Shown piece by piece: positions 2,671-62,164 of a DNA stretch of 64,000 bases. Origin of the DNA: Eggerthellaceae bacterium (GTDB taxonomy: Bacteria > Bacteroidota > Bacteroidia > Bacteroidales > Marinilabiliaceae); the NCBI GenBank assembly GCA_963631865.1, contig CAVGTO010000002.1, positions 7,054-71,053 on the forward strand. The letters are read 5' to 3'. The notes under the pieces were generated by a model. The model did no database searches. It worked only from the letters and a program-made list of their open reading frames with translations, and had not been told where the DNA came from. The translations under genes were made by a program, and so were the position numbers. Numbering within the stretch: the first letter of the stretch is position 1; every line of letters begins with the position of its first letter.

Positions 2671-2760
2671 CAGTTCTCAGCGCACAGTTAACAGTGCACA
2701 GTTTCAGGAGTTTTGAGATTTGACAGCATAAGCGACTGCAACTGCTAACTGTTAACTGGT
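2671..2760. repeat. Heptamer arrays: (CAGTTNN)x5 at 2671-2707 facing (NAACTGN)x4 at 2733-2760
   Basis: Direct reading gives cagttct cagcgca cagttaa cagtgca cagtttc ... cgactgc aactgct aactgtt aactggt. The second arm covers the last codons of the 2745..3233 gene. Confidence 0.85.
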
Positions 2761-3233
2761 GCCGATGTAAGGACTTGGATTTCGTCGTCGGACTGGGCGA
2801 GTTGGGAGTGGAGTTTGCCGCCGGGGCGGAAGTGGGCCAAGACGACTTTGGTGGCGTTAGAGATCATGTAGCGGTTGCGGCATTCGGCTTGGCCGTAGCA
2901 GTCGACCCACGGGAGGAGGAAGTCGGTGGTGGTTACGACGAGCAGGCGGGCTTCGCCAATGGCCTCGACGATGTACGTGGGCCAGAGTTTGGGATATGGT
3001 TTGTCGAGGACGAGAATGGTGGGGATGCGGCGTGCGAGGAGCTTCGCGAGGGCTTTCTGCTCAATTTTTTGGAGATTGCCGCAGAGGACGCAGTCGGTGG
3101 CCGGGTCAAGGGTCTCGATCCATTTTGTGACCTCCAGCTCGGCATTGGCGGGGGCGTTGCGCGACGAGAGGAATGCTATTTTTCGTTCGTGGGTCAACAG
3201 GTCGATGTTGCCTATGGGGACGGAGAGAGACAT
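2745..3233 (-). CDS. Small DprA/Smf-like Rossmann-fold protein (function uncertain)
   Basis: 162-aa ORF with an ATG start. 'IAFLSSRNAP...', 'CGNLQKIEQKALAKLL...IPTILVLDKPYP' and 'CRNRYMISNATKVVLAHFRPGG' loosely follow the DprA Rossmann-domain pattern. Confidence 0.45.
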   Translation of the reverse strand: MSLSVPIGNIDLLTHERKIAFLSSRNAPANAELEVTKWIETLDPATDCVLCGNLQKIEQKALAKLLARRIPTILVLDKPYPKLWPTYIVEAIGEARLLVVTTTDFLLPWVDCYGQAECRNRYMISNATKVVLAHFRPGGKLHSQLAQSDDEIQVLTSAPVNS

Positions 3234-3242
3234 ATCGGTTTA

Positions 3243-3356
3243 CAGTTAACAGTGCACAGTTATTTCCAGTAGCAGTGCACGGTTTGCAGTGCACGTTTTT
3301 TCTAGTTCTTTGTGCACTGCTCTTTTTTGTTTTCAGTGCACAGGTAACAGTTGGCG
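3243..3356 (+). repeat. Degenerate CAGTTNN/CAGTGCA heptamer array with an internal 9-bp inverted repeat
   Basis: cagttaa cagtgca cagttat ... gcagtgcac (3286-3294) pairs with gtgcactgc (3312-3320), followed by cagtgca caggtaa cagttgg. Confidence 0.7.
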
Positions 3357-3465
3357 TTTTTTATTTTGACCTGGCCGCGGGTGCTTCTGTTGGTTTAATG
3401 GGATAGGGAAGACGTAATGTACGTTTTACGATGGTGATAATGTATAGTTTCGGGAGGGATTTAAC

Positions 3466-4941
3466 TTAGTTCCCGATTAATGAGACGACATCACTTTCGG
3501 AGAAGGGGGCGGGAGCGGGGCTCACGTCGGGGATGTTGTAGGATTTGAGGCAAAGAAGGTCGTGCTCGGGGTCGGCTTGCGGGAGGGCGAAGGGACGGGA
3601 GGCGTGGCCTTGGGCATCGATGTGGGCTATGTAGACGCGGCCATATTGACCGTCGTGGCGTTTGGAGGCGAAGACGACCCAGCGGCTTGAGCTGGACCAC
3701 GTGTGGTAGGTCTCGGAGAGCGGAGAATTGAGGGGCGAGACGTCGGCCTCCTCACCCGTATGGAGGTCAATCATGCGGAAATCTGTCTCGCGGTGCCATA
3801 TGGGGAAAGTGCCGCTCTCGGAGGCCGAGAAAAGGAGGAAATGGCCGTCGGGGGAGACCTTTGGGAAACTGGCTGACATGCCATAACGGCTTGCGCTCCA
3901 AAGGGTATCGATGGGGCCAGCCCACTCACTGTCATTACGATTGAAGCCAACGCGGAGAATGGAGTAACGCAGGCAGGCGAGGCTATCGGGCAACGGGAGA
4001 GCCGGCGCCGAGCAGAAATAGACAGTATCGGCATTGGGCGAGAAACAGGGGAAAGTCTCGAGCGTGGAGTCGCCACTTACGAGGGGCGAGAGGATCATCT
4101 TGCCGCTGTCGAAATCGGCAATGCAGAGGTCGCTCTGAGCGTCGTAGACCTCCAAGCGGCGGCTGCCTTGGGAATGGAGGAGCGGGATTATCTCGTTGGT
4201 GGAGAAGACGCCGTAGTGGCCATCGGGACTTATGTCGCCATAGACGGCGCCGCCTTTCATATGCGGGTTGCGGAGATTGACTTTGCGGAGCTCATCCACA
4301 GCCCCACCCTGCCCACAAGAATGGAAGAGGAGACTAGCGCCGCCCTCGCCGCGGACGTGGAAAAGAGTAGTACGGCCGTCATGGCTATGGATATGGCAGT
4401 TCATACAGCGGCCACCGAGATTGCGGTTGTCGGCAAGGATGCGGGAGTTGAAAGACGTCATGTCCCGCTCCTCAATCTGAATGGCGTTCCAGACCTCGTA
4501 GCCGGGCTCGATGAGGCGGTAGGTGACGAAGGGGTCGAAAAGGTCGTCACTCACATCGAAAGAGAAAGTATCGCAGAGGAAGGATCCCGCACGGCGGTAA
4601 TAGAGAGTTACGCCGACATGATTGTCGGACGCGCCAGCCAAAATCTTGCGCCAAACGCCCTCATCGATAACCACCTTACGCCCACGACTAGCCACGCGGA
4701 GCGACCCGTCTCCAGTCGCAAAATCCGCGCAAACGGCATCGACGGAGTCGCAGGTGAGCATAAAGTTGAGCGGGGCGATGGAACGCGGGATGGTCACTCC
4801 GCGGTAGTCGGGGTAAATTTCGTCGGCAGAGAGGGGAACGATGGGATAACCGTCCCCTTCGGGGATGGGGGTGCAGGCTGCGAAAAGTGCGGCGCTGGCG
4901 ATTAGAGACGATAGGCGGGGATGGGTATTATTATTGGGCAT
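3466..4941 (-). CDS. Lipoprotein, copy 1: N-terminal domain, CxxCH motif and a PD40/TolB-like beta-propeller
   Basis: ORF 3466..4974 begins at a TTG. The ATG at 4941 gives the lipobox 'SLIASAALFAAC' and overlaps the upstream stop (TAATG). Motifs: PDYRGVTIP..APLNF, YRLIEPGYE, CMNCH, and SPDG-type blades (ISPDGHY, FSPNADT, VSPDGHF, WSSSSRWVVFAS). Confidence 0.8.
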   Translation of the reverse strand: MPNNNTHPRLSSLIASAALFAACTPIPEGDGYPIVPLSADEIYPDYRGVTIPRSIAPLNFMLTCDSVDAVCADFATGDGSLRVASRGRKVVIDEGVWRKILAGASDNHVGVTLYYRRAGSFLCDTFSFDVSDDLFDPFVTYRLIEPGYEVWNAIQIEERDMTSFNSRILADNRNLGGRCMNCHIHSHDGRTTLFHVRGEGGASLLFHSCGQGGAVDELRKVNLRNPHMKGGAVYGDISPDGHYGVFSTNEIIPLLHSQGSRRLEVYDAQSDLCIADFDSGKMILSPLVSGDSTLETFPCFSPNADTVYFCSAPALPLPDSLACLRYSILRVGFNRNDSEWAGPIDTLWSASRYGMSASFPKVSPDGHFLLFSASESGTFPIWHRETDFRMIDLHTGEEADVSPLNSPLSETYHTWSSSSRWVVFASKRHDGQYGRVYIAHIDAQGHASRPFALPQADPEHDLLCLKSYNIPDVSPAPAPFSESDVVSLIGN

Positions 4942-6488
4942 TATTTTTTGGAATGTAGTTGGCAGTAGAGCCAATAGGAGTGGGCGAAACTGCGTTTGAG
5001 GGCCGAGGCGTCGCGACGCTGCATGAGATCGTTGAAGCGGTCGAAATCGCGGACCACGTCGGAAGGCATCTCGATGCCCGCGAGTCGTGCACGGACCTCG
5101 GGCGGCGCGACGGTCGAGACAACCATCAGAGCCTCGGCGTAGGTGCGCGTCATGAGGCCATTGGCGTAGGCCAGGTAATCCTCGGCGAAATCCGCCATAG
5201 AGGTTTCCTGGAGATCGAGGGCGAGAAGGTATGTGCGCGCAAGGCCGTTGGAAGGATTGGCATCCAAGAGGTTGCGGAGCGAGCGGCGATAGTCGTCCGA
5301 AGCGCGGAGGGTGTCGCGGGAGGAGAGATAGGCACGCTTGTCGGCGAGCCAGGCGAGGTATGCGGCGCCACGGTTCTCGGGGCGGCAGGCATGGGCGAAT
5401 TTGGCATGGCGGAAAGTATGGCTGAGCATACCCAAGTATTTATCGGCCGCTTGCTCGTCGCCACGGATAATATTAATCTCGGCGAGGCGAATCACGTGGC
5501 GCGCGCAAGAGTGGTTGGGCGAGAAGATCATACCGAGGATTGTGGCGTGCTCGGCAAGGGTCATGTCGCCTATGGCATACCACACTTGGCCGGCGGCGGT
5601 GATGCTGAGGTAGTTGCCCGAGGGGGCCACGGGGAGGAAGAGTTGCGTCTGGGCGAGGTCGATATCGTCTATGGCGACGTCGGCCTTTTCGCGGAAGAGG
5701 TGGAGAGTGTATAGGCAATTGGCAATCTGCGTATTGCGGACACGAGGCGGGTAGTCGGCGGGCGAAAGCTTCTTGTTCCACCAAGTCTTGGTATCGACAC
5801 GGAGGATAGACTCGGAAGTGAGGTCGGGCCAGCCTAACCAGCATCCGCCAATGAAACCATGCCAAGGGGCTAGAAACATGGCCACGAGAGCCATTGCGGC
5901 AATGCGCCACCGACGGCGAGCCACCTCCGCGGCAATGATATACGCAAAAGCCACCACGCAGCCGTAGCCAACGGACGTGAGGCCCAAAACAACTATGGCG
6001 AAAGCCACCAAAGCCCTAACTCTCGGCCACTTAGAGACGGGATATAGATTGGCAAGGATGACGCCGAAGAGAAGCGACAGAGACGACGACAACGGATATT
6101 CGCCAACGCACTGGCGCCCCGCCTCCCAAATCATGACTGCCACGCCCGCGCCGAGCGCCACACGCCAATCGACCCACAGGCGACGGAGCCCATATGCCAC
6201 GAAACCGCCAAGCGCATAGAGCACGAAGACGACGATGACGGGTCCGCAGCCAACGTAGTAATAGAATTGCGTAAGGAAACCGCCCACGACGGCCGGCAGC
6301 CAGGCACGGGAGTCGTAGACCCCCTGGCTAAACATCTGACGGATGAAGTCGGACGAGGACAAAAAGAGTGAGAACTGCTCCCGGTGGTAGAAATGGTAGG
6401 GGTAGCAGAGCATGAAGAATATGAGGATTGCGGCGGCTACTGCGGCGCAAACAACTATCGAGACGATAAGATGACGTGTGGGACGCAT
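4941..6488 (-). CDS. Large polytopic membrane protein with a helical C-terminal half, copy 1 (DUF6057-like by recollection)
   Basis: ORF 4941..6518 starts at a TTG. The ATG at 6488 matches the N-terminal length of the paralogs. Shares 'GGFLTQFYYY' and the C-terminal helical region with the 6623 and 10530 genes. It is the most divergent of the three. Confidence 0.75.
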   Translation of the reverse strand: MRPTRHLIVSIVVCAAVAAAILIFFMLCYPYHFYHREQFSLFLSSSDFIRQMFSQGVYDSRAWLPAVVGGFLTQFYYYVGCGPVIVVFVLYALGGFVAYGLRRLWVDWRVALGAGVAVMIWEAGRQCVGEYPLSSSLSLLFGVILANLYPVSKWPRVRALVAFAIVVLGLTSVGYGCVVAFAYIIAAEVARRRWRIAAMALVAMFLAPWHGFIGGCWLGWPDLTSESILRVDTKTWWNKKLSPADYPPRVRNTQIANCLYTLHLFREKADVAIDDIDLAQTQLFLPVAPSGNYLSITAAGQVWYAIGDMTLAEHATILGMIFSPNHSCARHVIRLAEINIIRGDEQAADKYLGMLSHTFRHAKFAHACRPENRGAAYLAWLADKRAYLSSRDTLRASDDYRRSLRNLLDANPSNGLARTYLLALDLQETSMADFAEDYLAYANGLMTRTYAEALMVVSTVAPPEVRARLAGIEMPSDVVRDFDRFNDLMQRRDASALKRSFAHSYWLYCQLHSKK

Positions 6489-6527
6489 AACAAGGGCGAA
6501 TATATAAAATATCGGCAAACATTTTTA

Positions 6528-6535
6528 TATCTTTG
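6528..6535 (+). promoter_or_regulatory. Candidate -7 box TATCTTTG for the 6623-13755 operon
   Basis: Exact TAnnTTTG match in the intergenic region between the two divergently oriented cassettes. Confidence 0.4.
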
Positions 6536-6622
6536 CACATATTTTAAGACAGCGAAGATGTGAGCCACCCGTCAGCACTCACCCTTTCCGAGACGGTCTC
6601 GGCACACATACTAACAACACCG

Positions 6623-8440
6623 ATGCACACGACAACCGACAAGAAACATAGCATGCCCAGCATAGCCTGCGCGGCACTCACTTTTGCCGCTTCATTTGCC
6701 TTTTGGCTCTTCGTGCACCCGGAGGCCATGTCGTTCCACGAGCAATATACGATGTTCCTTTGCACATGGGACTTTGCAGCGCATAGGCTGGCAGTGGCCG
6801 GAGGGCTGGCTGAATACGTTGGAGAATTCATAACTCAATTTGCTTATTACCCGGCAGCAGGAGCTGCACTCATGGCCTTGCTCATGGTGGGGCTCGGGAG
6901 TGGCGTATGGGCCGTCATGCGGAAGATGGGGGCCAGAGAAGGGCACTGTTGGCTGAGCGTCTTGCCCGTGGCGTTGCTCATTGGCTATATGGGCGACGAG
7001 AATGTGGAGCCGGCTTTTGCCGTGGCGCTTACAGGCGGAATATGGATGGCGGCGGGATATGGACTATTGCAAGGTCGGTGGGCGCGGGTTTTTGGAGCTG
7101 GGATTGGGACATGCGTATGTTATTGGGCTTTGGGGCCGGTGGCATGGGCGTTCGCAGTGCTTTGCGGCGTTATTGACATGCGGCGCGGGGCTGGTGTTTG
7201 GGCCGGGCTTGTTGGATTGGTTTGCCTTAGCATCATTTTTTTCATTGCCTCAATTAGTTGGATGAGTCAGTATACGACACAGAACATCCTCTTGGGTCAC
7301 AACTATCATAATTTCCGGATGACGTGGCCCGCCATGCAATTTGTGGTTGAGGCGAGCATTGTAGTCGTGCCTGTGGTCGGCTCATTTTTACCATCAATAG
7401 AGAAGATTTGGGTATCAGCAATCGAAGGCGTCACAATATTCATACTCAGTTCGATATTCGCAATCACCTCATACGATGCGGACAAATACGCAGCCATAGC
7501 ATACGACAGCCTCGTGCGCGCCGAGAAATGGGACGAAATAATAGAACGGGCAACCAAGCGAGCCCCAAAGGACGCCACGAGCATGACGGCCGTTAACCTC
7601 GCCTTGGCCGAGCGCGGCGAACTATGCGAAAGGATGTTCGCCTACCCGCAGAAAGGCGCGGAGGGACTCATAGCTCCATCGCGGCGCGACCAGTTATCCG
7701 CCATAACATCCGCCGAAGCCCTTTTCCGCCTCGGGATGGTGAACGAGGCGCAACACTACTTCTTCGACTCACAGGAAGGCATAGTAGACTGCCACAAGAG
7801 CGCTCGCCTAAGCAAACGCATTGCCGAGACGCTCATAGTGAACGGACGGTACGAGATGGCGCGGAAATACCTACATCGGCTCAGCAAGACCCTTTTCTAC
7901 AGTCAGTGGGGCAAGAAAGCCGAATGGGCGATAAAGAGCGAAGCCACGGTTTGCGCGCACCCCACGTGGGGCCGACTGCGCACCTTAAGGTACAAAGACG
8001 GCTTCGTCTGGAACTACTACGCCATGGACAAGATGCTGGCCATACTCTACACGAGCAACACAGGCAACCGCATGGCGCTGGACTATTACATGGCCCAATG
8101 CCTCTTACGGCGCGACATTCAGAGAGTTTGGAAAGGCCTCGGGTGGGCAATAGCCGACTATGGGCGGGACAACATCCCGCGCCACATCCAAGAGGCCGTG
8201 GCATTGGCATGGATCCAGGGGCATAAGGATTTTGAGGGCGTACCCATAACTCTTTCTGAGAGCGTCGTCTCCGACCTTATGGAATATATGCGCATCTACA
8301 CAGCCAACGCATCCGACCCGCGCCTCGACACACAGCGGTGGCGAGCCACATACTGGCACTACCTGCTGCGCCAAAAGCCATCGGACGCCACAACGGGAGC
8401 CACGCAGAAATCAACCGCCAACGAAGAACAGACACGATGA
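6623..8440 (+). CDS. Large polytopic membrane protein with a helical C-terminal half, copy 2
   Basis: The ORF is open from a GTG at 6560. The ATG at 6623 gives an N-terminus the same length as copy 3. Motifs: 'HPEAMSFHEQYTMFL', 'YVGEFITQF', 'NLALAERGELCERMFAYPQ', 'LGMVNEAQ', 'GRYEMARKYL'. Confidence 0.8.
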   Translation: MHTTTDKKHSMPSIACAALTFAASFAFWLFVHPEAMSFHEQYTMFLCTWDFAAHRLAVAGGLAEYVGEFITQFAYYPAAGAALMALLMVGLGSGVWAVMRKMGAREGHCWLSVLPVALLIGYMGDENVEPAFAVALTGGIWMAAGYGLLQGRWARVFGAGIGTCVCYWALGPVAWAFAVLCGVIDMRRGAGVWAGLVGLVCLSIIFFIASISWMSQYTTQNILLGHNYHNFRMTWPAMQFVVEASIVVVPVVGSFLPSIEKIWVSAIEGVTIFILSSIFAITSYDADKYAAIAYDSLVRAEKWDEIIERATKRAPKDATSMTAVNLALAERGELCERMFAYPQKGAEGLIAPSRRDQLSAITSAEALFRLGMVNEAQHYFFDSQEGIVDCHKSARLSKRIAETLIVNGRYEMARKYLHRLSKTLFYSQWGKKAEWAIKSEATVCAHPTWGRLRTLRYKDGFVWNYYAMDKMLAILYTSNTGNRMALDYYMAQCLLRRDIQRVWKGLGWAIADYGRDNIPRHIQEAVALAWIQGHKDFEGVPITLSESVVSDLMEYMRIYTANASDPRLDTQRWRATYWHYLLRQKPSDATTGATQKSTANEEQTR

Positions 8441-9918
8441 AGAAGCAAGTCAAGACATCATACCGCCTAAGCGCACCCACGTGGATTGCGGCCCTCGCCA
8501 CTGCCCTCGCCACAGCGGCATGCGCCGACTCGCCAACAGCCACCACGCCCACCGACGGCCTCGCTCCACACATCTGGCCCGACTATGCGGACGTTACGAT
8601 ACCTGCCGCCACGGCACCCCTCAACTTCTGCGTGGACAGCGCAGAACAGGTCTTCGCAAGGGTGACAGGCGAGCGAGGAGGCGAGATAACGGCCAACGGG
8701 CAATATGCCGACTTCGACATCGACGAGTGGCACGAACTGACGACCCGCAATATGGGAGCCGACCTTACGGTATCCGTATCCACAAAACGGAACGGCAAAT
8801 GGATGCGCCACAACGACTTCACCATCCACGTAAGCGCCGACAGCCTTGGCGACTATGGGCTGACGTATCGCAAGATAGCCCCGGGATATGAGACCTACAG
8901 CGATATTGGAATATACCAGCGCGACATACACACCTTACGCGAGGAGGCCATAGTGGCATCGACGCTCGTGCCCGGCCAATGCATGTGCTGCCACACGGCC
9001 AACAGAGCCAACCCGCAGCAACTGACGCTCCACTTCCGCGGCCGGCATGCCGCCACGCTTATTCAGGTGGACGGAAACCGCAAATGGCTCACCACCAAGA
9101 CGGACAAGACGCTGTGCAACTGCATGTACCCCTACTGGCACCCGAGCGGCAACTATTGCGCCTACTCACTGAACAAAGTGAACCAAGTTTTCCTGACGGG
9201 GCACGAGAAGTTTATAGAAGTCTTCGACCGCGCATCGGACGCATGCGTGATGGACGTCAGGACGAACGAGCTCATCCTCTCGCCACTGCTCTCGACGGAG
9301 GACTACGAGACGTACCCCGTATTCTCGGCCGACGGACGCACGATGTACTATTGCTCGGCCAAGGCGGGCGAGAGAGAGCCACGTTACGACCTATGCGCCA
9401 TAAGTTTCGATGCGGACAAAGGGACCTTTGGCACCAAGGTGGACACCCTTATCCATGCTTCCGCCACGGGCAAAAGCATATCGCTGCCGCGCCCATCGTA
9501 CGACGGACGTTTCGTGATGTATTGCCTTGCGGACTACGGCTACTTCCCGATAGACCACCGGGAGGCAGACCTCTGGATATTGAACCTCAGCACGGGAGCG
9601 ACCTACCCCGCCGAAGCCGCCAACAGCGCGGACACCGAGAGTTTCCACAATTGGAGCTCAAACTCGCGGTGGGTGGTATTCTCCAGCCGACGGCATGACA
9701 GCATGACAAGCCTGGCCTACATAGCGCACGTAGACACGGCTGGGCACGTAGACAAACCCTTCCTCCTCCCGCAGCACAATCCGAGAGAGTTCTACCGTAC
9801 TTCGCTCCACTCGTTCAACACGCCGGACTTCACCACCGAGCCCGTCCGGATTGACCCGCGGGCCACGCAGGCCGAGGTGCTCAGCGACGAGCGGATACAA
9901 GTGACAGTCAGGGAATAG
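8437..9918 (+). CDS. Lipoprotein, copy 2: CxxCH motif and a PD40/TolB-like beta-propeller
   Basis: The ATG at 8437 overlaps the upstream TGA (ATGA). Lipobox 'ALATAAC'. Motifs: PDYADVTIP..APLNF, YRKIAPGYE, CMCCH, 'ESFHNWSSNSRWVVFSSRR'. Confidence 0.8.
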   Translation: MKKQVKTSYRLSAPTWIAALATALATAACADSPTATTPTDGLAPHIWPDYADVTIPAATAPLNFCVDSAEQVFARVTGERGGEITANGQYADFDIDEWHELTTRNMGADLTVSVSTKRNGKWMRHNDFTIHVSADSLGDYGLTYRKIAPGYETYSDIGIYQRDIHTLREEAIVASTLVPGQCMCCHTANRANPQQLTLHFRGRHAATLIQVDGNRKWLTTKTDKTLCNCMYPYWHPSGNYCAYSLNKVNQVFLTGHEKFIEVFDRASDACVMDVRTNELILSPLLSTEDYETYPVFSADGRTMYYCSAKAGEREPRYDLCAISFDADKGTFGTKVDTLIHASATGKSISLPRPSYDGRFVMYCLADYGYFPIDHREADLWILNLSTGATYPAEAANSADTESFHNWSSNSRWVVFSSRRHDSMTSLAYIAHVDTAGHVDKPFLLPQHNPREFYRTSLHSFNTPDFTTEPVRIDPRATQAEVLSDERIQVTVRE

Positions 9919-9954
9919 ATTTCAACTGAAAGCAAGAAAAAACAAAATCAAGAT

Positions 9955-10533
9955 ATGAAAAACGGAATTATAGCCCTTGCGGCATGCGCAATGGCACTCA
10001 CAGCATGCGACCAAACGCCGCTTTGCCACATCCACGGCACAGTGCCCTCTGAGAAATGGGACGGGCAATACGTATTCTTCGTGCCGCAATACGCCAAAGA
10101 CAGCATCGGAGTGGACTCCACCAAGATAACGGGTCACGAATTCACCTTCGAGACCACCAAGAAGGCCCTCTACGACGTACGCCTCAGCTGGCGCACACGC
10201 TACGGCATCCAGAACCTCCTCGTGGCCACCGAGCCGGGCCTTGTAGAGATAAGCCTGGACAGCATAAGCCACGGTGGCGGCGCCCCGCTGAACGACTCAC
10301 TGGAGGCGTGGAAGGAGCGCACGATGGCGTATAACGAGACATCGCACGCGTTGGCCGTGGCGTACCGCAACTTCTACGCGGCGGGCGACAGCATCATGGG
10401 CGACGCCGTGAAGGCACAGGCCAAAGCGGCCTACGAAAAGTATCGCGACGAAACTCTCCGCCTGGCCGAGAGCGTAGACGGCACACCATTGGAGATCTTC
10501 CTGCACCAGATATACGCGGCAAGAAAGAAATGA
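9955..10533 (+). CDS. Small lipoprotein, DUF4369-like N-terminal domain plus a helical tail
   Basis: 192 aa with lipobox 'ALTAC'. 'IHGTVPSEKWDGQYVFF...' resembles the DUF4369 beta-sandwich that usually precedes TlpA-type thioredoxins, but no thioredoxin CxxC is present. Its stop overlaps the next start (ATGA at 10530). Confidence 0.5.
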   Translation: MKNGIIALAACAMALTACDQTPLCHIHGTVPSEKWDGQYVFFVPQYAKDSIGVDSTKITGHEFTFETTKKALYDVRLSWRTRYGIQNLLVATEPGLVEISLDSISHGGGAPLNDSLEAWKERTMAYNETSHALAVAYRNFYAAGDSIMGDAVKAQAKAAYEKYRDETLRLAESVDGTPLEIFLHQIYAARKK

Positions 10534-12311
10534 CACAACAAAAGGCATGGCATGCGGCCCTGACGTCGGCATTCGGCGTCGGGGTATTCGCATTTTGGCG
10601 ATTGGCGCACCCCGAGGCACTATCGTGCGCCGAGGAGCTGCAGCTCTTCCTCTTTAGCGGCGACTACCTCACGGCACGGCTAGCCTACCCCGGCGGCCCG
10701 GCCACATACGTGGGCGAGTTTCTCACGCAGTTCTACAACCCTCTCACGCTCGGCGCCGTCATAGCAGCCCTGCTGATGGTGGTTGTCCAGCGGCTCACGT
10801 GGAAGTCTATGAAGGGCGTGCCCGAGGAGTTAGGGGAGAGAGGCGGAGAGGTGGCCTATGGGCTGTCGTTCGTCGTGCCGGCCTTATTGCTCGTCTTGAT
10901 GGGAGACGAGAGTATTTTGACGGGCCATATTGTCGAAGTGACATTAGGGCTTGGCGTTTGCTGCGCCTTCGCACGATATGGGACTTCGGATTTGCGCCGA
11001 GCGGTCATTTTGGGCATTGGTTTGCCCGTGACGTATTACCTTGGAGGATCGGCTGTTTACCTTGTCTTGGCATATGCCATAGTTTGGCGCATCGCCTCGC
11101 GGAAGAGGTTTGGGGCTTGGGACGCTATGTATCCCCTGGCCGTTTGCGAGATAGGGCTGTCGATATGGGTGGCGTCGCGTTTGGCGGCCTACCCTATCGA
11201 GAGGCTTGCCGTGGGCATTGGGAATTACCGTATGGCGGAGGTGCCTGTGGCGGTCGGATTGTCGATGCCCGCTGTAGGGCTCTTGGCCGCTTTGGCGGGA
11301 TTGAGAGTGATGAACGTCAGGCGGGTGTCGGGGCTCGGGATATTGGGTGTCATGCTGCTTTGCGTTGTCGGCACACGACTCTCTTACGACGAGTTCAAAT
11401 ATCGGGTGATGAAATATGACCTTTGCCTGCGCAAACGCGATTGGAAAGAGGCCATACGCATAGGCGAGAAATATGGAGCAAAATCACCACTAGAATTGGC
11501 ATCGATAAACTTCGCCCTTGCCATGCGCGGCGAGATGGCCGAGAGGATGTTCGAGTTCCCGCAAGTGAACAGCGAAGGACTATTGCCAGTCTTCAGCCGT
11601 GAAGTATTCTCGACAATGATGACGGGCGACATATATTTTGAACTAGGAATGGTGAACACGGCGCAGCGTTTCGCCTTCGAGGCACAAGAGGCCATACCTA
11701 ACCACCAGAAGAGCGGCCGACTGACGCGCCGCCTCGCCGAGGTGGCCATCGCCGACGGACATTACGCCCTAGCCCGGCGTTATCTCGGGGTGCTTAAGAA
11801 GACCTTCGCGTACCGTTCGTGGGCCCGACAGATGGAGGAACTTATCGCGGACGAGGCGCGGGTGAACGCCCATCCGCTTTTCAGCCGCCTGAGGCGGCAG
11901 CGAGTAAAGGAGGACTTTTTCTACAGTGACAGGGAGCTGGACCAGATGCTGGGCCTTCTCTTCAACCATGACAAGACGAACCGCTTGGCGGTGGACTACC
12001 TCTTGGCATGCGAACTGCTGACCAAGAACTTGCCTGCCTTCGTACGCTACGTGCCCCTGTTGGGACAGTTGCCGGACGGCGGCGGCATCCGCATTCCGAG
12101 GGCATATCAGGAGGCGCTGTGCATGGCGTGGGCGCAGAAACATACGAGTTTTGATGGCATGCCGTGGCGACTTGACGCGGAGGTCAAACAGTCGTTTGTT
12201 GACTTCGCACGGATTCACTCGGCCAATCAGAACGACGCGCGGCTCGGCGAGGGGCGCATTGGCAGCAGCTACTGGGCGTACTACACTCGTCAGCTAACAG
12301 TTAACAAGTAA
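10530..12311 (+). CDS. Large polytopic membrane protein with a helical C-terminal half, copy 3
   Basis: 593 aa. Motifs: 'HPEALSCAEELQLFLF', 'YVGEFLTQF', 'NFALAMRGEMAERMFEFPQ', 'LGMVNTAQ', 'GHYALARRYL'. The last codons (QLTVNK) lie in a heptamer array. Confidence 0.85.
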   Translation: MTQQKAWHAALTSAFGVGVFAFWRLAHPEALSCAEELQLFLFSGDYLTARLAYPGGPATYVGEFLTQFYNPLTLGAVIAALLMVVVQRLTWKSMKGVPEELGERGGEVAYGLSFVVPALLLVLMGDESILTGHIVEVTLGLGVCCAFARYGTSDLRRAVILGIGLPVTYYLGGSAVYLVLAYAIVWRIASRKRFGAWDAMYPLAVCEIGLSIWVASRLAAYPIERLAVGIGNYRMAEVPVAVGLSMPAVGLLAALAGLRVMNVRRVSGLGILGVMLLCVVGTRLSYDEFKYRVMKYDLCLRKRDWKEAIRIGEKYGAKSPLELASINFALAMRGEMAERMFEFPQVNSEGLLPVFSREVFSTMMTGDIYFELGMVNTAQRFAFEAQEAIPNHQKSGRLTRRLAEVAIADGHYALARRYLGVLKKTFAYRSWARQMEELIADEARVNAHPLFSRLRRQRVKEDFFYSDRELDQMLGLLFNHDKTNRLAVDYLLACELLTKNLPAFVRYVPLLGQLPDGGGIRIPRAYQEALCMAWAQKHTSFDGMPWRLDAEVKQSFVDFARIHSANQNDARLGEGRIGSSYWAYYTRQLTVNK

Positions 12312-12325
12312 CAGTTGACAGTTTA
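12291..12325 (+). repeat. (CAGTTNN)x5 heptamer array spanning the stop codon of the 10530 gene
   Basis: cagctaa cagttaa caagtaa cagttga cagttta. Confidence 0.85.
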
Positions 12326-12336
12326 CGAATAGAACC

Positions 12337-14694: not shown

Positions 14695-14736
14695 TATGAA
14701 CTGTGAACAGAGAACTTCTAACCGCAAACTGAAAAA
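14695..14736 (-). repeat. Heptamer array, AACTG orientation on the + strand
   Basis: tatgaac tgtgaac agagaac ttctaac cgcaaac tgaaaaa. Confidence 0.7.
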
Positions 14737-45200: not shown

Positions 45201-45240
45201 GTAATTTATGGAGAGAACAGTTTGTATGGGGAGGGGAATT

Positions 45241-52317: not shown

Positions 52318-52803
52318 TTACTTGGTCAGTTCACGGACTTTCTCGATGAGCTCGTCCTCATCGCCGTCGATATATCCGTTGTGCTTGTAGACGATGACGC
52401 CCTTGCCATCCACGATGATGGTGAAGGGGACCATCTGTGCACCCAGCGCGCGCTTGAAGTCGCTGTTGGTGTCGAGGAGCACCTCATAGGGCCAAGCGTG
52501 GTTATCCACGAGGGGCTTAACTTTCTTGACGTTCTGCGCCTGGTCAATGGATACGGCAATGAGGGAGACGCCTGTCTCGGCCTGCCAGTCCTCATAAACG
52601 TCGGCAATGGCGGTGAGCTCGCGGATGCAGGGCTTGCACCATGTGGCGAAGAAGTCGATGATGACGGGTTTGCCGTCCTTGGCAAGGTCGGCCGTGTTGA
52701 TGGTCTTGCCCTCGATGGTCTTGAGGGTGACGGATGGGATTTGCGCCTCGGCAGCCACGTTGGCTACAAGGGCAAGAAGAAGTGTGAGGAGGATATGCTT
52801 CAT
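52318..52803 (-). CDS. TlpA/ResA-like periplasmic thiol:disulfide oxidoreductase
   Basis: 'IDFFATWCKPCIREL' is a thioredoxin CxxC. The ATG at 52803 gives the signal peptide 'MKHILLTLLLALVANVAAEA'. The ORF-track start at 52854 is a TTG inside a heptamer array. Confidence 0.8.
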   Translation of the reverse strand: MKHILLTLLLALVANVAAEAQIPSVTLKTIEGKTINTADLAKDGKPVIIDFFATWCKPCIRELTAIADVYEDWQAETGVSLIAVSIDQAQNVKKVKPLVDNHAWPYEVLLDTNSDFKRALGAQMVPFTIIVDGKGVIVYKHNGYIDGDEDELIEKVRELTK

Positions 52804-52809
52804 ACTTTT

Positions 52810-52858
52810 CAATTTACAATTGACAATGGACTGTTGACAATTGACAGTTGACAATTAC
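52810..52858 (+). repeat. (CAATTNN/CAGTTNN)x7 array
   Basis: caattta caattga caatgga ctgttga caattga cagttga caattac. Confidence 0.8.
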
Positions 52859-52948
52859 GTGAACCCCGCTGGCGAGGTGTGAGCTCAATGTTAAGTGGGG
52901 GTAATTAATTTGCAGACGATAATCAAGAAATAGCGTCGGCACTCTCCG

Positions 52949-53000
52949 CAACTGTGAACTGTGAACCGTGAACTGTTCAGCAACTGCTAACTGTTAACTA
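52949..53000 (-). repeat. Heptamer array (AACTG orientation) abutting the stop at 52998, inverted relative to 52810-52858
   Basis: caactgt gaactgt gaaccgt gaactgt tcagcaa ctgctaa ctgttaa cta. Confidence 0.8.
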
Positions 53001-54032
53001 TTTAGTCAGTTTCGGGTTCTCCATAATTACGGGGAACTGGGTGTTCCTATCGATGGAGCCGGAGGTCGTGGTGGCGATGGCGAAAGCCGCGAAGGTCGTG
53101 GTCTTGCTGCCGGAAGTGTAGGCAGAGCCCGCGAAGGTGGCGGAGATGTTGCCCTCGGCGTCGGTAACGACGGGTGCCGACACCTTGCCCGTGGCGGCTG
53201 CCGAGATGGATACCTGGTAGTTCTTGTCGGTGAAGACGATGAAGGCCGTCTTATCGTTATAGGTGCCAATCTGCTGACCGCTCTGGAGCGTCAGGGCGTA
53301 GTTGGTGGCGTCGAACTGCACCGGGAGGGTAAGATCGTACTTCTGGAGGTAGAGGCCCGAAGTGCTGAGGGTGACCTTGGTCGTGAGGTCCATCTCGTAG
53401 TCGATGTCGTAGTAGGTGAGCGTATATTCGCCCGCCACGTCCTTGGCGAACTCGAATTGCGATACGAAGACCTTGTCGGTGTAGGCGCCTGCGGCAACCT
53501 CTACGTAGCCCACGCGGCGGCTGCCGGTTGCGTTGGCCGAGATGGAGAGGTTGACCTTGCCATTTGCCACGGTGGCCTCAATCCAATCGGGAGTGGAGGC
53601 TATGGTCACCTCGCGTGTGGACTGCACGGAAAAGGATGCCGTAGCTGCCGCGTCGGACGAGAGGATGATGTCGTCGTTGTCCACCACAAATATGAGGCCA
53701 AGCTGAGAGATATTGACCACAATGGAATCCTGCTCGGCTTTCTTCACCACCAGGATGGCGTTGCGGCTCTGAGGGTCGTCGTTGTCCTGAGCCGTGAAAG
53801 ATACGGTCTCGCCACTCACCGTGAGGCTGAGCCACTCGGAGTGGTTGGTATAGGCCGAGGCAATTGGCGCGTCGATGGTTACGTGACCCGAGGCGTTGGC
53901 AGCCTCAAGGCTCGTCGTGGCGCTCTTGACGGTGATGGTGGTCTCGGGGGCCGCCATGTCCGTGCAGTCGTCTTCGCAGGCTGAGAAAGCCAGCGCCGCT
54001 GCGACTAATGCTGCTATGGTTGTTTGTTTCAT
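52998..54032 (-). CDS. Lipoprotein with two BACON-like domains (PUL accessory protein)
   Basis: Lipobox 'LAFSAC'. 'HSEWLSLTVSGETVSFTAQDNDDPQSRNAILVV' and 'TPDWIEATVANGKVNLSISANATGSRRVGYVEV' fit the BACON pattern. Confidence 0.5.
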   Translation of the reverse strand: MKQTTIAALVAAALAFSACEDDCTDMAAPETTITVKSATTSLEAANASGHVTIDAPIASAYTNHSEWLSLTVSGETVSFTAQDNDDPQSRNAILVVKKAEQDSIVVNISQLGLIFVVDNDDIILSSDAAATASFSVQSTREVTIASTPDWIEATVANGKVNLSISANATGSRRVGYVEVAAGAYTDKVFVSQFEFAKDVAGEYTLTYYDIDYEMDLTTKVTLSTSGLYLQKYDLTLPVQFDATNYALTLQSGQQIGTYNDKTAFIVFTDKNYQVSISAAATGKVSAPVVTDAEGNISATFAGSAYTSGSKTTTFAAFAIATTTSGSIDRNTQFPVIMENPKLTK

Positions 54033-54074: not shown

Positions 54075-54125
54075 TACCCCGGGGCTCGCACCCCGGGCTC
54101 GCTTACCGCACCCTTACAGGGCTTC
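54075..54125 (+). repeat. GC-rich double-hairpin repeat, copy C
   Basis: taCCCCGGGGctcgcaCCCCGGGctcgcttaccgcacccttacagggcttc. It overlaps the last codons of the 54114 gene. Confidence 0.65.
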
Positions 54126-57962: not shown

Positions 57963-58022
57963 TATTTACTTCTTTTCTTGTTCTACGCCAGGGGGGGGGA
58001 CCCCGCCGATGTCACCCCTTTT

Positions 58023-58050
58023 CAGTTCACAGTTAGCAGTTCACAGTTAC
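58023..58050 (+). repeat. (CAGTTNN)x4 array in the SusC-SusD spacer
   Basis: cagttca cagttag cagttca cagttac. Confidence 0.8.
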
Positions 58051-58132
58051 TGGAACTTTGAGAGATAATCTGAGGCTAAATCCCAAGGTTAGCATAACTG
58101 TTAGTTACTTACGGGGAAAATTCCAGTTAGGG

Positions 58133-58190
58133 ACGCCCGGGCTCGCGCCGCCGGGCTAACTTACCACGCCCCTTTGGGGCTTCGTTACCT
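58133..58190 (+). repeat. GC-rich double-hairpin repeat, copy D
   Basis: cgcccgggctcgcgccgccgggctaacttaccacgcccctttggggcttcgttacc. Confidence 0.65.
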
Positions 58191-58229
58191 CGCCTACAGT
58201 CTTTTAAAGTTACATAGGGGAAAAAACGG

Positions 58230-58264
58230 CAACTGTGAACTGTGCACTGAGCACTGTTAACTGC
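58230..58264 (-). repeat. Heptamer array (AACTG orientation) ending 1 nt before the SusC stop, inverted relative to 58023-58050
   Basis: caactgt gaactgt gcactga gcactgt taactgc. Confidence 0.8.
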
Positions 58265-58265
58265 T

Positions 58266-61200
58266 TTAGAGTCCCACCTTGAGGGTCAGAGTGAACTGCT
58301 TAGGCATAGGAGAGGCGACACCGCCGGCGTTCATAAACTCGGGGTCCTGACCGTTGAGCTTCTTATCCGCATAGATAAGGAAGAGGTTGGTGGCCTGGAG
58401 CTTGAGCTGAATCTTCTCCACCGGGGTATCCTCAAACCACCTCTTGGGGCAGTCGTAGGCAAGGGAGATCTCCTTCATGCGGATGAAGTCGCCCTTGGCG
58501 ATGCGCTCCGTGGAGTAGTTGTAGGCGTTGTAGGCGTAGCGAATCTGGCTGTTGTTCTTATACTGACGGTAGCTGACAATGGCGGGAACGTTAGTCTTGT
58601 CCTCGTCGCCAGGGTTGACCCAACGGTTACGGAAGACACCCGTCATTGAGGTCATGTCGGTATAAGATGCCGCGAAGACAGGGTCAAGGCGAACGACATT
58701 GCCAAAGGCGTATGTCATGAAGATGTTGAGGCTGAAGCCCTTATACGAGAACGTATTGGTGAGCGAACCGTTGATTGTCGGGTCCGTCGGGCCCTCATAC
58801 TTGAGGTAGTCGGTCTTGTCGCGCTCCTGGAAGTTGATGTCGTAGACGGTCTCGACCTTGTTCTCGTTGATGAAGCGCGGCATACCGTCCTCCGTCAGTC
58901 CTACGAAAGGAATGGAGAAGAGCGCGCGCACAGGGTAACCCTTCATGGCGAAGCCCGAGCCAGCCACCATGTCTATCACGCGGCCCTGGTTGTAGAGGTC
59001 AGTAATCTCGGTCTCGTTGTGCGAGAAGACGAGGCTCGTGCCCCACGAGAAGTCGCCGCGCTTGATGTTGGTGGATGAGATAGAGACCTCCTGGCCCCAG
59101 CTCTTCATCTTACCCTGGTTGGCGTAGCGGATAATCTCGCCGCCGACACCCTGGGTGGCCACGGGCACAATCTCGTCGAAGTTGCGACGGGTGTAGACAT
59201 CGAAGGTCACGTTGACGCGGTCGTTGAGGATTCCGGCGTCGAAACCGAAGTTGAACTCGTTCTTCTTCTCATAGGTGAGGCCCGCGTCGGCAAGACTCTC
59301 GACCTGGATGCCGGACTCGCGGTCCGACGAGAAGGGACGGTAGGGATTGTAGCTGCGGAGGATGGCCGTCGAGCTCGAGTAGTCGGCGCTCGGGGGAGTA
59401 CCCGTAAGGCTATACGAAGCGCGGAGCGTCAAGTGAGAGAGGGGAGCCCAGTTCTCGAAGAAATCCTCCTCATGGGCGTTCCAGCTGGCCGAGACGTTCC
59501 ACGTTGGCATCCAACGGGCGTTGGAGTTCTTGCCAAGCTGGTTAGAACCCTCGTAACGGTAGGTGCCGTTGACGACGTACTTGCCTTTGAAGGAATAAGT
59601 GGCGTTGGCATAGAAGGCCACGCTGCGCGAATTGGTGTTCGAGAGGGTGTAGTAGTCAGAATTCTCCTCCACGAGTTTCTTGAAATAGGTGTACTCGAAG
59701 TAGGGAATCTCGCCACTCTCATACTGCATGCCCCAGCCGTTGAACCAAGTGCGGGTGCGCTTGATACCCGTGGTCTCGAGACCTGCGAAGAGGTTTACGA
59801 TATGGGTGTTGGCAAAGGTGTTGTTGTACTGGCCGGTGACGCGGAAATCGACGTCAGTCATGCGGTTGTCGGTGCGCTGGTAGATGCCGCCCTCGGGGAG
59901 GACGGAGATGGGGAGCGCGTAAGCGTCATCGGGGTCGGTGTAGAGGAGCACGTTGGCGTCGCGGATGATGAGGTTGTCCATGGCGCGGTAGGCGAGAGCC
60001 TGGTTGCTGTTGTCCTTAATCTTGTGCTCCTGGGTCGTGGCACTGTATTTGAGGGCGCCGAGGACAGCGAACTCGAGGCCGTTGATGGGTTTGTAGCGCA
60101 CTTCGCCTTGGAACTTGACGTCGGCCACGTTGAGGTCGATATAGTTGTTCGAGAGCTCGTTGAAGATATTGAACTTGGCGTAGTTGGCGTGGTAATAGGT
60201 GTCGGGGTCGAGGGTGCGGCTGGTGTTCAACGCGTAGGAGTACGGGTTGATGTCGAAGTCGCGCTTGACCTCGCCGGATACCACGTCGACATCCTGGCCA
60301 ATGGTGCCCGGCGCGCTCTGCTTACGGTAGGCGGCTGAGCCTATGCCGTTGAAGGTGAGGCCGTCCAGGATATGGTGCGTGACGTTGAAGTTGGCCGTGA
60401 AACGCTTGACGTCGCTATCGAGATACCAACCCGGGTCCACCATGGCGGAGAGAGACGCGTAGTAGTTGCTCTTCTCTGTGCCGCCGCTCATGGATATTGA
60501 GTGGTTCTGCATGACGGCGAGGGAGAAGAGCTCCTTGAACCAGTTGGTGTTGCGTCGCTCGGCCTGCTGGAGGTATGCGTTGCGCGCCTCCTGAGTGTTC
60601 TGGAGGGCGAAGAGGCCGGTCTTGCTGTCGTATGTGTTGATGAGCTCATACATCTTGCCATAGACGCCGTAGTCCGAGCCGTTGAGGACGTCGGAGAGGT
60701 TCAGCCAGCCTTTCTGCTCCATCTCCTTATAGATGCCCATCTGCTCCTGCGAGTTGAGGATGTCGAAGTTGCGGTATGAAGGGATGAGGCGGGTGGTGAA
60801 CTCGCCGTTGTAGCTGAAGTGCGCCTGGCCGGCCTTGCCCTTCTTGGTAGTCACGACAATGACGCCAGCCATGGCCCTCGCGCCATAGATAGATGTCGCC
60901 GAACCATCCTTAAGGATCTGGAAACTCTCGATATCGTCCGAGTTGAGGCCCGCGATGGCCGAGCTGATAAGGGTCTCGGCATCGCCCGAGCTGAGATCGT
61001 CGGCCGATACGTCGGACACGTCTTCCATAATCACGCCGTCCACAACCCACAGCGGCTTGGAGCTGCCATAGATAGACGTAGCGCCACGGACGCGAATCTT
61101 AGGAGCCGAGCCGAAAGTGCCGCTGACGTTCTGCACCGACACGCCGGCCGCCTTGCCCTCGAGCGAGCGGCTGATGTCCGCCACGCCGCTGAGCTTGGTG

Positions 61201-61586: not shown

Positions 61587-61717
61587 ACAATGGAGATAGA
61601 GTGACAAGTAGGATAAGTTTTTCACTAGGTTTGTTTCCAATGGAGAAAAAATCAACACTCGATTACGTAATATGAATATATCTTAACGAATTCGTACCAA
61701 GTATTGCATTTTTGCTC

Positions 61718-61725
61718 CAAAACTA
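61718..61725 (-). promoter_or_regulatory. Candidate -7 box TAGTTTTG upstream of the second SusC
   Basis: The reverse complement of caaaacta matches TAnnTTTG, in the A/T-rich 500-bp spacer. Confidence 0.35.
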
Positions 61726-62072
61726 TGGACTACAAGTTAATTTCCCAAGAAAGCAGATGCATAAATATGTATTATTAACATCTGTCGCGCCATTATGACA
61801 CGCCACTCCACGCTGTTCGCTGTATTTCAATATAAGTTTGCCATCGTTTGCACACCACGAACACCACACCCGCTTTTAACTTTTAGTCCACTTCGCACGT
61901 TTTCTTCAACCCCCACTTTGCATTTTTATGCCTTTATGAGCCAAATGGACGTGCTTGTTGTATTTGGGAATTTTAACAAAAAGGGCCTGAATGACTTTTT
62001 TACCACAAGGGTTGGATTACTTCCGGCAATCTTCGACAATTCAAAACAAACCTTATCCCCCAATCCCCCCCA

Positions 62073-62111
62073 CAAAAAAATCCCCCCGCGGCCACAAAAA
62101 ACCGCAGGGGG
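62073..62111 (-). terminator. Rho-independent terminator after the BspA-like gene
   Basis: On the minus strand, CCCCCTGCGG-ttttttgtgg-CCGCGGGGGG followed by ATTTTTTT. Confidence 0.6.
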
Positions 62112-62126
62112 CTAAATCATTCTCCC

Positions 62127-62164
62127 GCTAACTGTTAACCGCTAACTGTTAACTGAAAACTAAC
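62127..62164 (-). repeat. Heptamer array abutting the stop at 62165
   Basis: gctaact gttaacc gctaact gttaact gaaaact aac. Confidence 0.8.

Follow-up and report, generated by a model that had tools for sequence, protein, structure and literature searches.

CAGTT heptanucleotide arrays with a fixed polarity to neighbouring genes in a Bacteroidales genome: tentative evidence for a proliferating intergenic repeat family

Tandem arrays of the heptanucleotide CAGTTNN occupy many of the gene ends in a 64-kb stretch (contig CAVGTO010000002.1, hereafter the window) of a Bacteroidales metagenome-assembled genome (MAG) with a G+C content of about 55%. They follow stop codons with CAGTT on the sense strand of the gene that ends there, frequently occur as inverted pairs, vary between strains by whole units and are absent from the sister species compared. 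To judge from these comparisons they are recent, species-specific insertions. They belong to a class that has been described and not explained, the intergenic tandem heptanucleotide repeats, and are a variant of it in three respects, namely unit set, dominant position and frequent pairing, in a host lineage that is new for this class. As an explanation we tentatively favor, with a probability of roughly 0.45, a proliferating and slippage-prone family of intergenic heptamer repeats similar to the REP/BIME (repetitive extragenic palindrome/bacterial interspersed mosaic element) or Correia sequences, the transcribed pairs of which would serve as exonuclease-barrier or processing stems between cistrons.

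Results

Genes in the window were mapped by codon usage, seeded with open reading frames (ORFs) supported by Pfam, which left 14.6% of the sequence non-coding. The gene content includes SusC/SusD pairs, BACON, Omp28 and DUF6057 genes, and the nearest named relatives of its SdhB are those of Dysgonomonas, Coprobacter and Paludibacter (approximately 82%). Tandem Repeats Finder (TRF) returned 56 rows, 33 of them with a period of 7, 14 or 21, and all of these except one short row were of the AACTG/CAGTT type. The pattern CAGTTNNCAGTTNNCAGTT, corresponding to three CAGTTNN units, was matched 40 times with at most one mismatch, compared to 0.01 matches expected from dinucleotide-preserving shuffles. 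The arrays, which had been noticed in a sequence-only reading of the window, are thus real, periodic and non-random. On one strand, CAGTT follows CAGTT at a distance of 7 nt in 32 cases and of 14 nt in 14 cases, other distances up to 30 nt being rare, and the motif occurs 4.2 times per kb in intergenic versus 0.9 times in coding DNA. A dedicated scan identified 27 arrays, approximately one per 2.5 kb, nearly all inside non-coding DNA; the overlap with coding sequence is limited to the last seven codons at most. The dominant units are CAGTTCA, CAGTTAG, CAGTGCA/T, CAGTTGG and CAGTTGC, and CAGTTAA is also used. Each position listed in the sequence-only reading carries an array or a degenerate array, whereas the length of 3 to 18 units given there was too generous, since uninterrupted runs comprise 3-8 units and the longest composites (37070-37154 and 37185-37288) about 12-15. 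At the gathering score, a tRNA-Arg was the sole Rfam match in the window, and no family matched the arrays. An assembly artefact, considered as a further possibility, was ruled out because the arrays are also present in two independent assemblies, the NCBI MAG GCA_963653095.1 (99.4% identical) and a metagenome contig from ENA (97%), and hence in three assemblies including that of the window.

By a scripted count, 25 gene 3' ends are followed by 30 nt or more of spacer, a number that decreased to about 21 once truncated gene starts had been corrected. Thirteen of these bear a sense-oriented array, which in 11 of the 13 cases begins within 25 nt of the stop codon or overlaps it. What the initial statement described as most operons amounts to about 60% of those gene ends which a spacer follows. 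The arrays have colonised over half of the gene-end spacers available to them. The array closest to a gene 3' end is in sense orientation in 13 cases and in antisense orientation in two (binomial p = 0.007), confirming that arrays abutting or overlapping stop codons read CAGTT in the sense of the gene. This polarity is seen for genes of both the plus strand and the minus strand within a single stretch of positive GC skew. Given that the arrays flip with gene direction inside this uniform skew, their polarity follows transcription and not replication, and a replication-strand cause was ruled out. A minority position is represented by two AACTG-sense arrays that end 2-5 nt before a start codon (3236-3263 and 52810-52858).

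Arrays that overlap a stop codon encode short tails on otherwise unrelated proteins, QLTINS, QLTVNK, QLAVSS, PVNS and QLAGNS, each followed directly by the stop. In practice, arrays of this kind give proteins variable tails of 4-6 residues (QLTVNS-like), and they also disrupt assemblies and displace gene-end calls in MAGs. The idea that the arrays are a universal three-frame stop module was rejected as a general rule: of the 11 arrays that abut a stop, just 5 have a stop in each of the three frames when read in sense, and 4 when read in antisense. It is also contradicted by the commonest cyanobacterial unit, CAGTTAT, which contains no sense stop.

By inspection of the scan, six inverted pairs with the CAGTT arm first are present in the window, the partner being located 30-180 nt away. 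On the sense strand, the paired layout reads stop codon, (CAGTTNN)n, loop, (NNAACTG)n, usually AAAAG, and the next gene, from the start codon of which the AACTG-sense array is separated by just 3-5 nt in two cases. Single arrays are not palindromes. The inverted pairs form predicted stems, consistently with the CAGTT arm first. Many arrays thus have the inverted partner and the potential for a long imperfect hairpin that had been proposed at the outset. Four pairs were folded, with predicted energies of -84.6 kcal/mol (z = -5.3) for 37060-37300, which unites the arrays 37070-37154 and 37185-37288, -38.6 kcal/mol (z = -3.6) for 41280-41400, -51.5 kcal/mol (z = -2.0) for 52800-53005 and -80.2 kcal/mol (z = -1.9) for 58015-58270.

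The arrays also have an internal polarity. Next to a stop codon, the units CAGTTAA, CAGTTAG and CAGTTGA prevail; further inside, CAGTTCA or CAGTGCN is used, and the array closes with CAGTTGC in seven cases and with CAGTTAC in three. Where no stop codon precedes an array, its 5' flank is CTTTT. The distant loci 37070-37129 and 52948-53000 have the same composite build, in which a 4-nt linker separates three units from four to five further ones; the segments 37071-37120 and 52950-52999 are 82% identical over 50 nt with an identical linker, and a match of 31 nt reaches 97%.

A separate hairpin at 46050-46085(-), downstream of an M6 peptidase gene, consists of CAGTTGCAAGC, ata and GCTTGCAACTC, followed on the sense strand by AAAAAAGG. 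It shares the stem-then-A-run arrangement of the array pairs, yet contains a single CAGTTGC unit.

Strains that are 97-99% identical keep the arrays and differ in them by whole 7-nt units. Of the approximately eight arrays that could be compared between the window and the 97% strain, three (13735, 27637 and 29729) differ by exactly one unit, and the flanking DNA contains few indels; one of the three changes alters the C-terminus of the PD40 protein. Two of the three strain-specific rearrangements in the compared 23 kb break at an array, namely a 1.66-kb insertion at 23784 and a loss of synteny at 35107. The inserted segment (22119-23784) is absent from strains L001 (the 97% strain) and L003, has one end inside the array 23775-23809 and carries an AbiEii toxin fragment (22548-22799), a 239-aa ORF without a Pfam match and a 13-bp tandem repeat (23631-23674).

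In sister species, no CAGTT array was found in seven loci (SdhB 86-93% identical, 127 kb, G+C 0.49-0.58), and TRF detected no heptamer arrays there. Eighty Bacteroidales loci fetched via SdhB (73-81% identity, 669 kb) were likewise free of CAGTT arrays, compared to 22 arrays found by the same criterion in the window. Since the sister loci are array-free, the arrays arose after the split from these species. The nine-gene operon susC, susD, Peptidase_Mx1, DUF4302, BACON, AhpC, DUF6029, Omp28, Omp28 is syntenic in contigs with SusD proteins 91%, 73% and 68% identical, in which the spacers are tight and contain no arrays. The susC-susD spacer measures 303 nt in the window versus 40, 21 and 51 nt in the relatives, the BACON-AhpC spacer 194 nt versus 26 and 16 nt, and the alignment with the relatives in this operon ends exactly at the stop codon. 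Neither a target-site duplication nor a flanking direct repeat was found when the filled susC-susD and BACON-AhpC sites were compared with the empty ones of contig L294. Conservation at orthologous sites was dismissed, with no arrays after sdhB or in the susC operon of relatives, and covariation tests are impossible because the relatives carry no arrays. As the same operons do without arrays in sister species, the arrays would not qualify as conserved regulatory elements, and by this comparison a conserved regulatory role appears unlikely. Both lineage specificity and length variation, which the sequence-only reading had raised as questions, are observed.

Upstream of sdhC, a 33-bp tandem repeat (2.7 copies, 27801-27889) stands ahead of an AAA_14/DUF4143 ATPase gene (27901-29271). 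The gene is present in the window and in L002 and absent from the 97% strain; a homologous gene occupies the same place in one sister-species locus (L462) and is missing in another (L461). The pattern suggests a mobile element or a defence gene that is specific to this site. A strain-variable region upstream of the ATPase_2/AAA_16 gene 35645-37090 contains a 21-bp tandem repeat (CACTACCCAAAAG..., 3.7 copies, 35130-35206); the 97% strain has a SLFN_AlbA_2/HATPase_c_4 gene here instead.

An exact five-unit pattern was found in at least 120 stretches of a species-representative genome collection. Among the matches listed, about 50 belong to Cyanobacteria, 25 to Bacteroidota, 22 to Acidobacteriota and 13 to Planctomycetota, and Parabeggiatoa, Verrucomicrobiota and others are also represented; 90 further stretches were found in viral contigs. 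The preferred units differ lineage by lineage. A crude ORF-based method was used to assess polarity. Among the 120 genome matches listed, ORFs end at an array in sense orientation 60 times and in antisense orientation 18 times (p = 2e-6), with 29 versus 4 in Cyanobacteria, 16 versus 6 in Acidobacteriota and 7 versus 1 in Bacteroidota; in viral contigs the ratio was 54 to 30. The gap between stop codon and array is mostly 0-6 nt in a sample of these other genomes. Before starts, AACTG-sense arrays outnumber CAGTT-sense arrays by 37 to 16 among the genome matches listed, and cyanobacterial loci also contain AACTG-sense arrays 2-5 nt ahead of start codons. Neighbouring inverted pairs are CAGTT-first in 42 cases and AACTG-first in 5 (p = 2e-8; overall, merged count among the matches listed).

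Five-unit arrays of the control cores GACTT, CTTGA and ATGCT were found in 53, 69 and 45 stretches of the viral contigs, respectively, compared to the 90 with CAGTT, and control-core arrays occur in giant-virus MAGs as well. Given that arrays with permuted cores are nearly as common, phylogenetic breadth alone proves nothing, and a universal CAGTT-specific factor deduced from it was discarded. No inverted pairs were found for the three control families in viral contigs, and two of the three showed no stop polarity; CTTGA arrays favored the sense orientation after ORF ends by 17 to 7. Only pairing and polarity are therefore specific to CAGTT in comparison with the control cores.

Discussion

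The sequence-only reading was not aware of any described element of this form, although intergenic tandem heptanucleotide repeats have been reported repeatedly (Mrazek 2007; SPADE, 10.1101/309039; TAACTGA repeats, PMC4679880). Heptamers are the most over-represented long simple sequence repeats (SSRs) in many bacteria, for which polymerase slippage has been proposed (Mrazek 2007, as summarised in PMC4679880 and PMC4692102). Among the periodic repeats that the SPADE survey found in the intergenic DNA of 7,006 prokaryotic genomes, tandem heptamers are reported to be the most abundant, and "no clear clue" was seen as to what they do (10.1101/309039). With head-to-tail 7-nt units far beyond chance, a concentration in non-coding DNA, one-unit steps between relatives and a sporadic, lineage-specific occurrence, the arrays of the window share the properties of this class.

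The closest relatives described are the TAACTGA repeats (reverse complement of TCAGTTA) of marine Beggiatoaceae, 15 Cyanobacteria and five Bacteroidetes, which in Beggiatoaceae are mostly located just upstream of start codons and differ between strains by 7-nt indels (MacGregor 2015, PMC4679880). Like these, the window arrays consist of head-to-tail 7-nt units with an AACTG/CAGTT core, are intergenic, occur in patchy lineages, show 7-nt indels between close strains and include AACTG-oriented arrays directly upstream of starts. In contrast, they share the 5-nt core only, the last two positions being free, so that the exact units TAACTGA and TCAGTTA occur just two and three times, respectively, in 64 kb. 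They are found mainly after stop codons in CAGTT orientation and not before starts, inverted pairs are common compared to a single indirect repeat in BOGUAY (PMC4679880), and the genome that carries them is a Bacteroidales MAG of gut or rumen type. Cyanobacterial short tandemly repeated repetitive (STRR) sequences and other heptameric SSRs are likewise intergenic tandem heptamers with lineage-specific units, length variation and some inverted pairs, and the G-rich heptamers of Xanthomonas and Nostoc form quadruplexes and also inverted pairs (GGGAATC in Xanthomonas; Rehm 2015, PMC4692102). Their unit sequences differ from those of the window, and neither polarity relative to genes nor abutment to stop codons was found reported in the portions of these accounts available to us. 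The same limitation applies to the stop-to-CAGTT polarity and the CAGTT-first pairs, which we did not find stated in the published descriptions of such repeats.

The REP/BIME elements of enterobacteria and the Correia (CREE) sequences of Neisseria are abundant extragenic elements at 3' ends and between cistrons. Their inverted pairs fold into RNA stems. The elements stabilise the upstream mRNA or are cleaved by RNase III, and they act as rearrangement hot spots. They are palindromes of unique sequence, approximately 35-150 nt in length, with a dedicated or inferred transposase (RAYT; a TA duplication in the case of Correia). The window arrays resemble them in their siting at 3' ends and between cistrons, in inverted pairs with stems and in a lineage-specific copy number. 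In contrast, they are simple sequence with a variable number of units, the loops are unrelated and no target duplication is seen. A classical miniature inverted-repeat transposable element was rejected: terminal inverted repeats are present in the form of the six CAGTT-first pairs, whereas the interiors are not conserved and a target-site duplication was missing in both filled/empty comparisons. The unrelated loops between the arms are by themselves reason to exclude this class. Tc1/IS630-like termini (CAGT with a TA target) were also dismissed, as the flanks of the arrays are not TA.

According to the explanation that we favor, new copies would originate from pre-formed array modules that are copied or inserted into spacers and would subsequently grow and shrink by replication slippage. 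Only those copies would survive that close the upstream reading frame within about six codons, and these would also provide the downstream gene with an A-rich leader. Since the arrays are located between stop codon and terminator or between cistrons, they would be transcribed as 3'-UTR (untranslated region) or intercistronic hairpins, and paired arrays may fold into imperfect RNA stems of 20-60 bp. The likeliest effect of such a stem would be that of a 3'-exonuclease barrier or an RNase III-type processing site which uncouples neighbouring cistrons; any benefit for the cell would be secondary to the spread of the arrays.

Several observations speak against this explanation. The z-scores are modest (about -2) for two of the four folds, and the effect of the stems on RNA is one that we infer. 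The arms of different loci are as complementary (82-97%) as those of true neighbours; there is thus no evidence for selection on pairing, and selection on arm complementarity was dropped as a candidate. The sequences between the arms (30-178 nt) are unrelated among copies, so that repeat families are formed by the arms only, and polarity is just as pronounced in the many arrays without a partner, an observation for which the hairpin model does not account. Moreover, no transposase, RAYT or other mobilising gene was seen among the genes of the window, and the lack of a target-site duplication at the filled sites mentioned above points in the same direction.

A role of the arrays or their hairpins as transcription terminators or attenuators, raised in the sequence-only reading, is barely probable. 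Their placement at 3' ends and the predicted stability of the stems would be in line with it, as would one true bidirectional terminator (35403-35445), although this structure incorporates just one CAGTTAG/CTAACTG unit, at the base of its stem. Array pairs share with intrinsic terminators the formation of stem-loops downstream of genes; their stems, however, are long, imperfect and not GC-rich, and the 3' arm is followed by AAAAG instead of a U-tract, for want of which the equation of array and terminator was abandoned, while unpaired arrays have no stem at all. Canonical hairpin-plus-T terminators, identified by a consensus scan, sit beside several arrays as separate features, in agreement with the initial distinction between the two: downstream of the array that follows gene 62165-63997, between the two arrays after sdhB and directly before 14697-14731 (gene 14832-16340). 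Thus, several arrays lie between a stop codon and a separate terminator or right after a T-tract. Furthermore, pairs occur inside operons (susC-susD, BACON-AhpC), where termination would silence genes that are co-transcribed in relatives. Plain replication slippage, by which microsatellites would have grown in place without copying, reader or function and the polarity would reflect a tolerance filter near stops and starts, has more in its favor and is nevertheless unlikely in our view. Strains do differ in unit number by steps of 7 nt, the lack of arrays is no handicap to sister species, and the heptamer is the most slippage-prone unit length according to Mrazek's hypothesis (via PMC4679880); many bacteria have an excess of heptamer SSRs, and arrays built on arbitrary cores are frequent (PMC4679880, PMC4692102, 10.1101/309039). 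On the other hand, one core (CAGTT/CAGTG) makes up essentially all period-7 arrays of the window, and sister species with about 91-93% protein identity have no period-7 arrays, which is why polymerase bias alone does not create them. Slippage also fails to account for whole spacers replaced by about 250 nt with two inverted arrays at a site that, when empty, contains no proto-repeat, for composite modules with identical linkers at distant loci, and for the 42 to 5 ratio of inverted pairs among the matches listed, when control families have no pairs and in two of three cases no stop polarity.

In another explanation, the arrays would be platforms for the multivalent binding of a protein that recognises single-stranded nucleic acid and covers about 7 nt, for instance one with a cold-shock domain, an S1-like OB-fold or an RRM. 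It would act on mRNA through CAGUU in 3' UTRs and AACUG in 5' leaders and thereby control translation termination or initiation, or RNA stability. Such a platform might matter most in phyla that make little use of Shine-Dalgarno sequences. The strict 7-nt period with a conserved 5-nt core and two free positions is consistent with this possibility, and so is the polarity, which tracks gene direction and not replication in the window and in other phyla and therefore favors a reading at the RNA level or co-transcriptionally. The AACTG-sense arrays 2-5 nt before starts in the window and in cyanobacterial loci also fit, CspB of B. subtilis occupies heptamer repeats at a ratio of one protein to each heptamer, and Csp or S1 proteins have been proposed for the TAACTGA repeats (PMC4679880). 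Against this, the operons are array-free in sister species, which excludes a conserved regulon that depends on the arrays, no candidate protein was identified, the unit set differs in each lineage and heptamer arrays built on unrelated cores occur about as often in viral contigs (45-69 stretches versus 90), so that a 7-nt period needs no CAGTT-specific reader; we regard this platform as distinctly unlikely. A DNA-level role, either as recombination or integration hot spots bordering accessory DNA or as sites for nucleoid or replication proteins, is suggested by the rearrangements that break at arrays (23775-23809 and the stop at 35107) and by the rearrangement role proposed for long arrays in G. 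forsetii and M. aeruginosa (PMC4679880). Gene ends, however, are natural breakpoints with or without arrays, most arrays lie inside conserved operons that lack rearrangement, a double-stranded site needs no fixed orientation to its neighbour gene, and a 7-bp spacing places successive sites on different faces of the helix. We regard this role as somewhat less likely than the platform. Finally, it is doubtful, to about the same degree as the binding platform, that the CAGTT arrays are a distinct, polar intergenic element common to several phyla, in the presumptive architecture of which a stop codon or the T-tract of a terminator is followed by (CAGTTNN)n, a loop, (NNAACTG)n, an A-run and the start codon, and that it is written or read by dedicated machinery. 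A horizontally transferable array-copying enzyme or a single-strand binding protein with a 7-nt footprint would be candidates for the latter. If true, it would explain about a thousand copies (extrapolated) in one species and none in its sisters as well as the common polarity rules in Cyanobacteria, Acidobacteriota and Bacteroidota.

Irrespective of the explanation, the species constitutes a natural experiment, as one Bacteroidales species is saturated with one heptamer family and its sisters have the same operons without arrays. Setting the genomes with arrays against those without them could reveal which gene makes or uses the arrays, and transcripts of orthologous operons with and without arrays would directly measure their effect. 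The three polarity rules, i.e. CAGTT after stops, AACTG before starts and CAGTT-first pairs, hold in the other phyla sampled. They constrain any model, because explanations based purely on double-stranded DNA or purely on slippage do not predict them.

Map of the arrays and further observations

The arrays and related features of the window are compiled in Table 1.

Table 1. Heptamer arrays and associated features in the 64-kb window (97% strain, L001)
Position	Strand	Feature	Context
2671-2705	+	Array arm CAGTTCT CAGCGCA CAGTTAA CAGTGCA CAGTTTC	Inverted partner of 2738-2758
2738-2758	-	Sense array CAGTTAA CAGTTAG CAGTTGC	Over last codons and stop of gene 2745-3233(-); tail ...PVNS, stop
3236-3354	+	Three degenerate arrays (3236-3263, 3266-3299, 3334-3354)	AACTG-type in sense of gene 2745-3233(-); end 3 nt upstream of start codon
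12291-12325	+	Sense array CAGCTAA CAGTTAA CAAGTAA CAGTTGA CAGTTTA	Includes stop of DUF6057 gene 10530-12311 (tail QLTVNK, stop)
13735-13755	+	Sense array	Last 6 codons and stop of PD40 gene 12337-13755 (QLTINS, stop); one unit more in 97% strain (QLTVNN, stop)
14697-14731	-	Degenerate sense array	Right after T-tract of canonical terminator, downstream of gene 14832-16340(-)
23775-23809	-	Sense array	Right after sdhB terminator T-tract; distal end is breakpoint of 1.66-kb strain-specific insertion
23894-23914	-	Sense array	19 nt past sdhB stop (23933)
27611-27692	+	Longest uninterrupted array, 8 units after degenerate CAGTGC units	Divergent spacer upstream of sdhC; one unit fewer in 97% strain
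27777-27795	-	Short inverted partner of 27611-27692	
29729-29770	+	Sense array, 6 units	Begins 2 nt past stop of FKBP gene; one unit fewer in 97% strain
35086-35109	+	Weak array CAGTTGG ... CAGTTAG	Spans the stop of gene 33718-35106 (tail QLAGNS, stop); synteny with 97% strain stops here
35403-35445	.	Perfect 19-bp palindromic bidirectional terminator	One unit, CAGTTAG ... CTAACTG, forms the foot of the stem
37070-37154	+	Composite sense array, blocks of 3, 5 and 3 units with 4-nt linkers	First block includes stop of gene 35645-37090 (tail QLAVSS, stop)
37185-37288	-	Composite inverted partner of 37070-37154	Sense for convergent gene 37456-41160(-)
41197-41236	.	Mini inverted pair CAGTCCA CAGTTAC gga GTAACTG CGACTG	Upstream of start of gene 37456-41160(-)
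41288-41315	+	Arm with CTTTT in front	Inverted partner of 41366-41386
41366-41411	-	Sense units CAGTTAA CAAGTAA ... CAGTTCT CAGTTCA CAGTTAC	At and past stop of gene 41397-45278(-)
47642-47669	-	Unpaired sense array	5 nt past stop of gene 47674-49794(-)
52810-52858	+	CAATTGA/CAGTTGA arm	In gene sense ends ...AAATTGAAAAGT directly before ATG of AhpC-like gene
52948-53000	-	Composite sense array, 3 units, 4-nt linker, 4 units	Includes BACON gene stop (TAG); architecture as in 37070-37129
58023-58050	+	Arm with CTTTT in front	susC-susD spacer; partner of 58229-58263
58229-58263	-	Sense array	Begins 2 nt past susC stop; start of ~245-nt insertion absent from relative with 91% identical SusD
62128-62162	-	Sense array	3 nt past stop of gene 62165-63997(-); canonical terminator follows at 62111-62082
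4941-6518 with 3466-4974; 6560-8440 with 8338-9918; 10530-12311 with 12337-13755		DUF6057/PD40 gene pairs	

A second dispersed intergenic repeat, a GC-rich double hairpin, is present at 58136-58181(+), 23548-23594(+), 23682-23727(-) and 54078-54113. It resembles the Rfam family Acido-Lenti-1 (RF01687), matching the full model with 30.6, 20.2 and 17.5 bits, below the gathering score of 37 (best E = 2.6e-5). One copy is located in the loop of the susC-susD array hairpin, two are part of the strain-specific insertion after sdhB and one abuts the DUF4302 stop. A link between this element and the arrays was considered and rejected, as none of 18 acidobacterial and Lentisphaeria loci showed the element next to an array.

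The gene 2745-3233(-) has arrays on both sides, one 3 nt upstream of its start and the other over its stop codon; it encodes a 162-aa protein with a weak DprA-like match (DNA_processg_A, E = 6e-4) that is below the cut-off. The adjacent region 3466-13755 comprises the three paralogous pairs of DUF6057 and PD40 beta-propeller genes, of which only the third (10530-12311 with 12337-13755) carries arrays at its stop codons.

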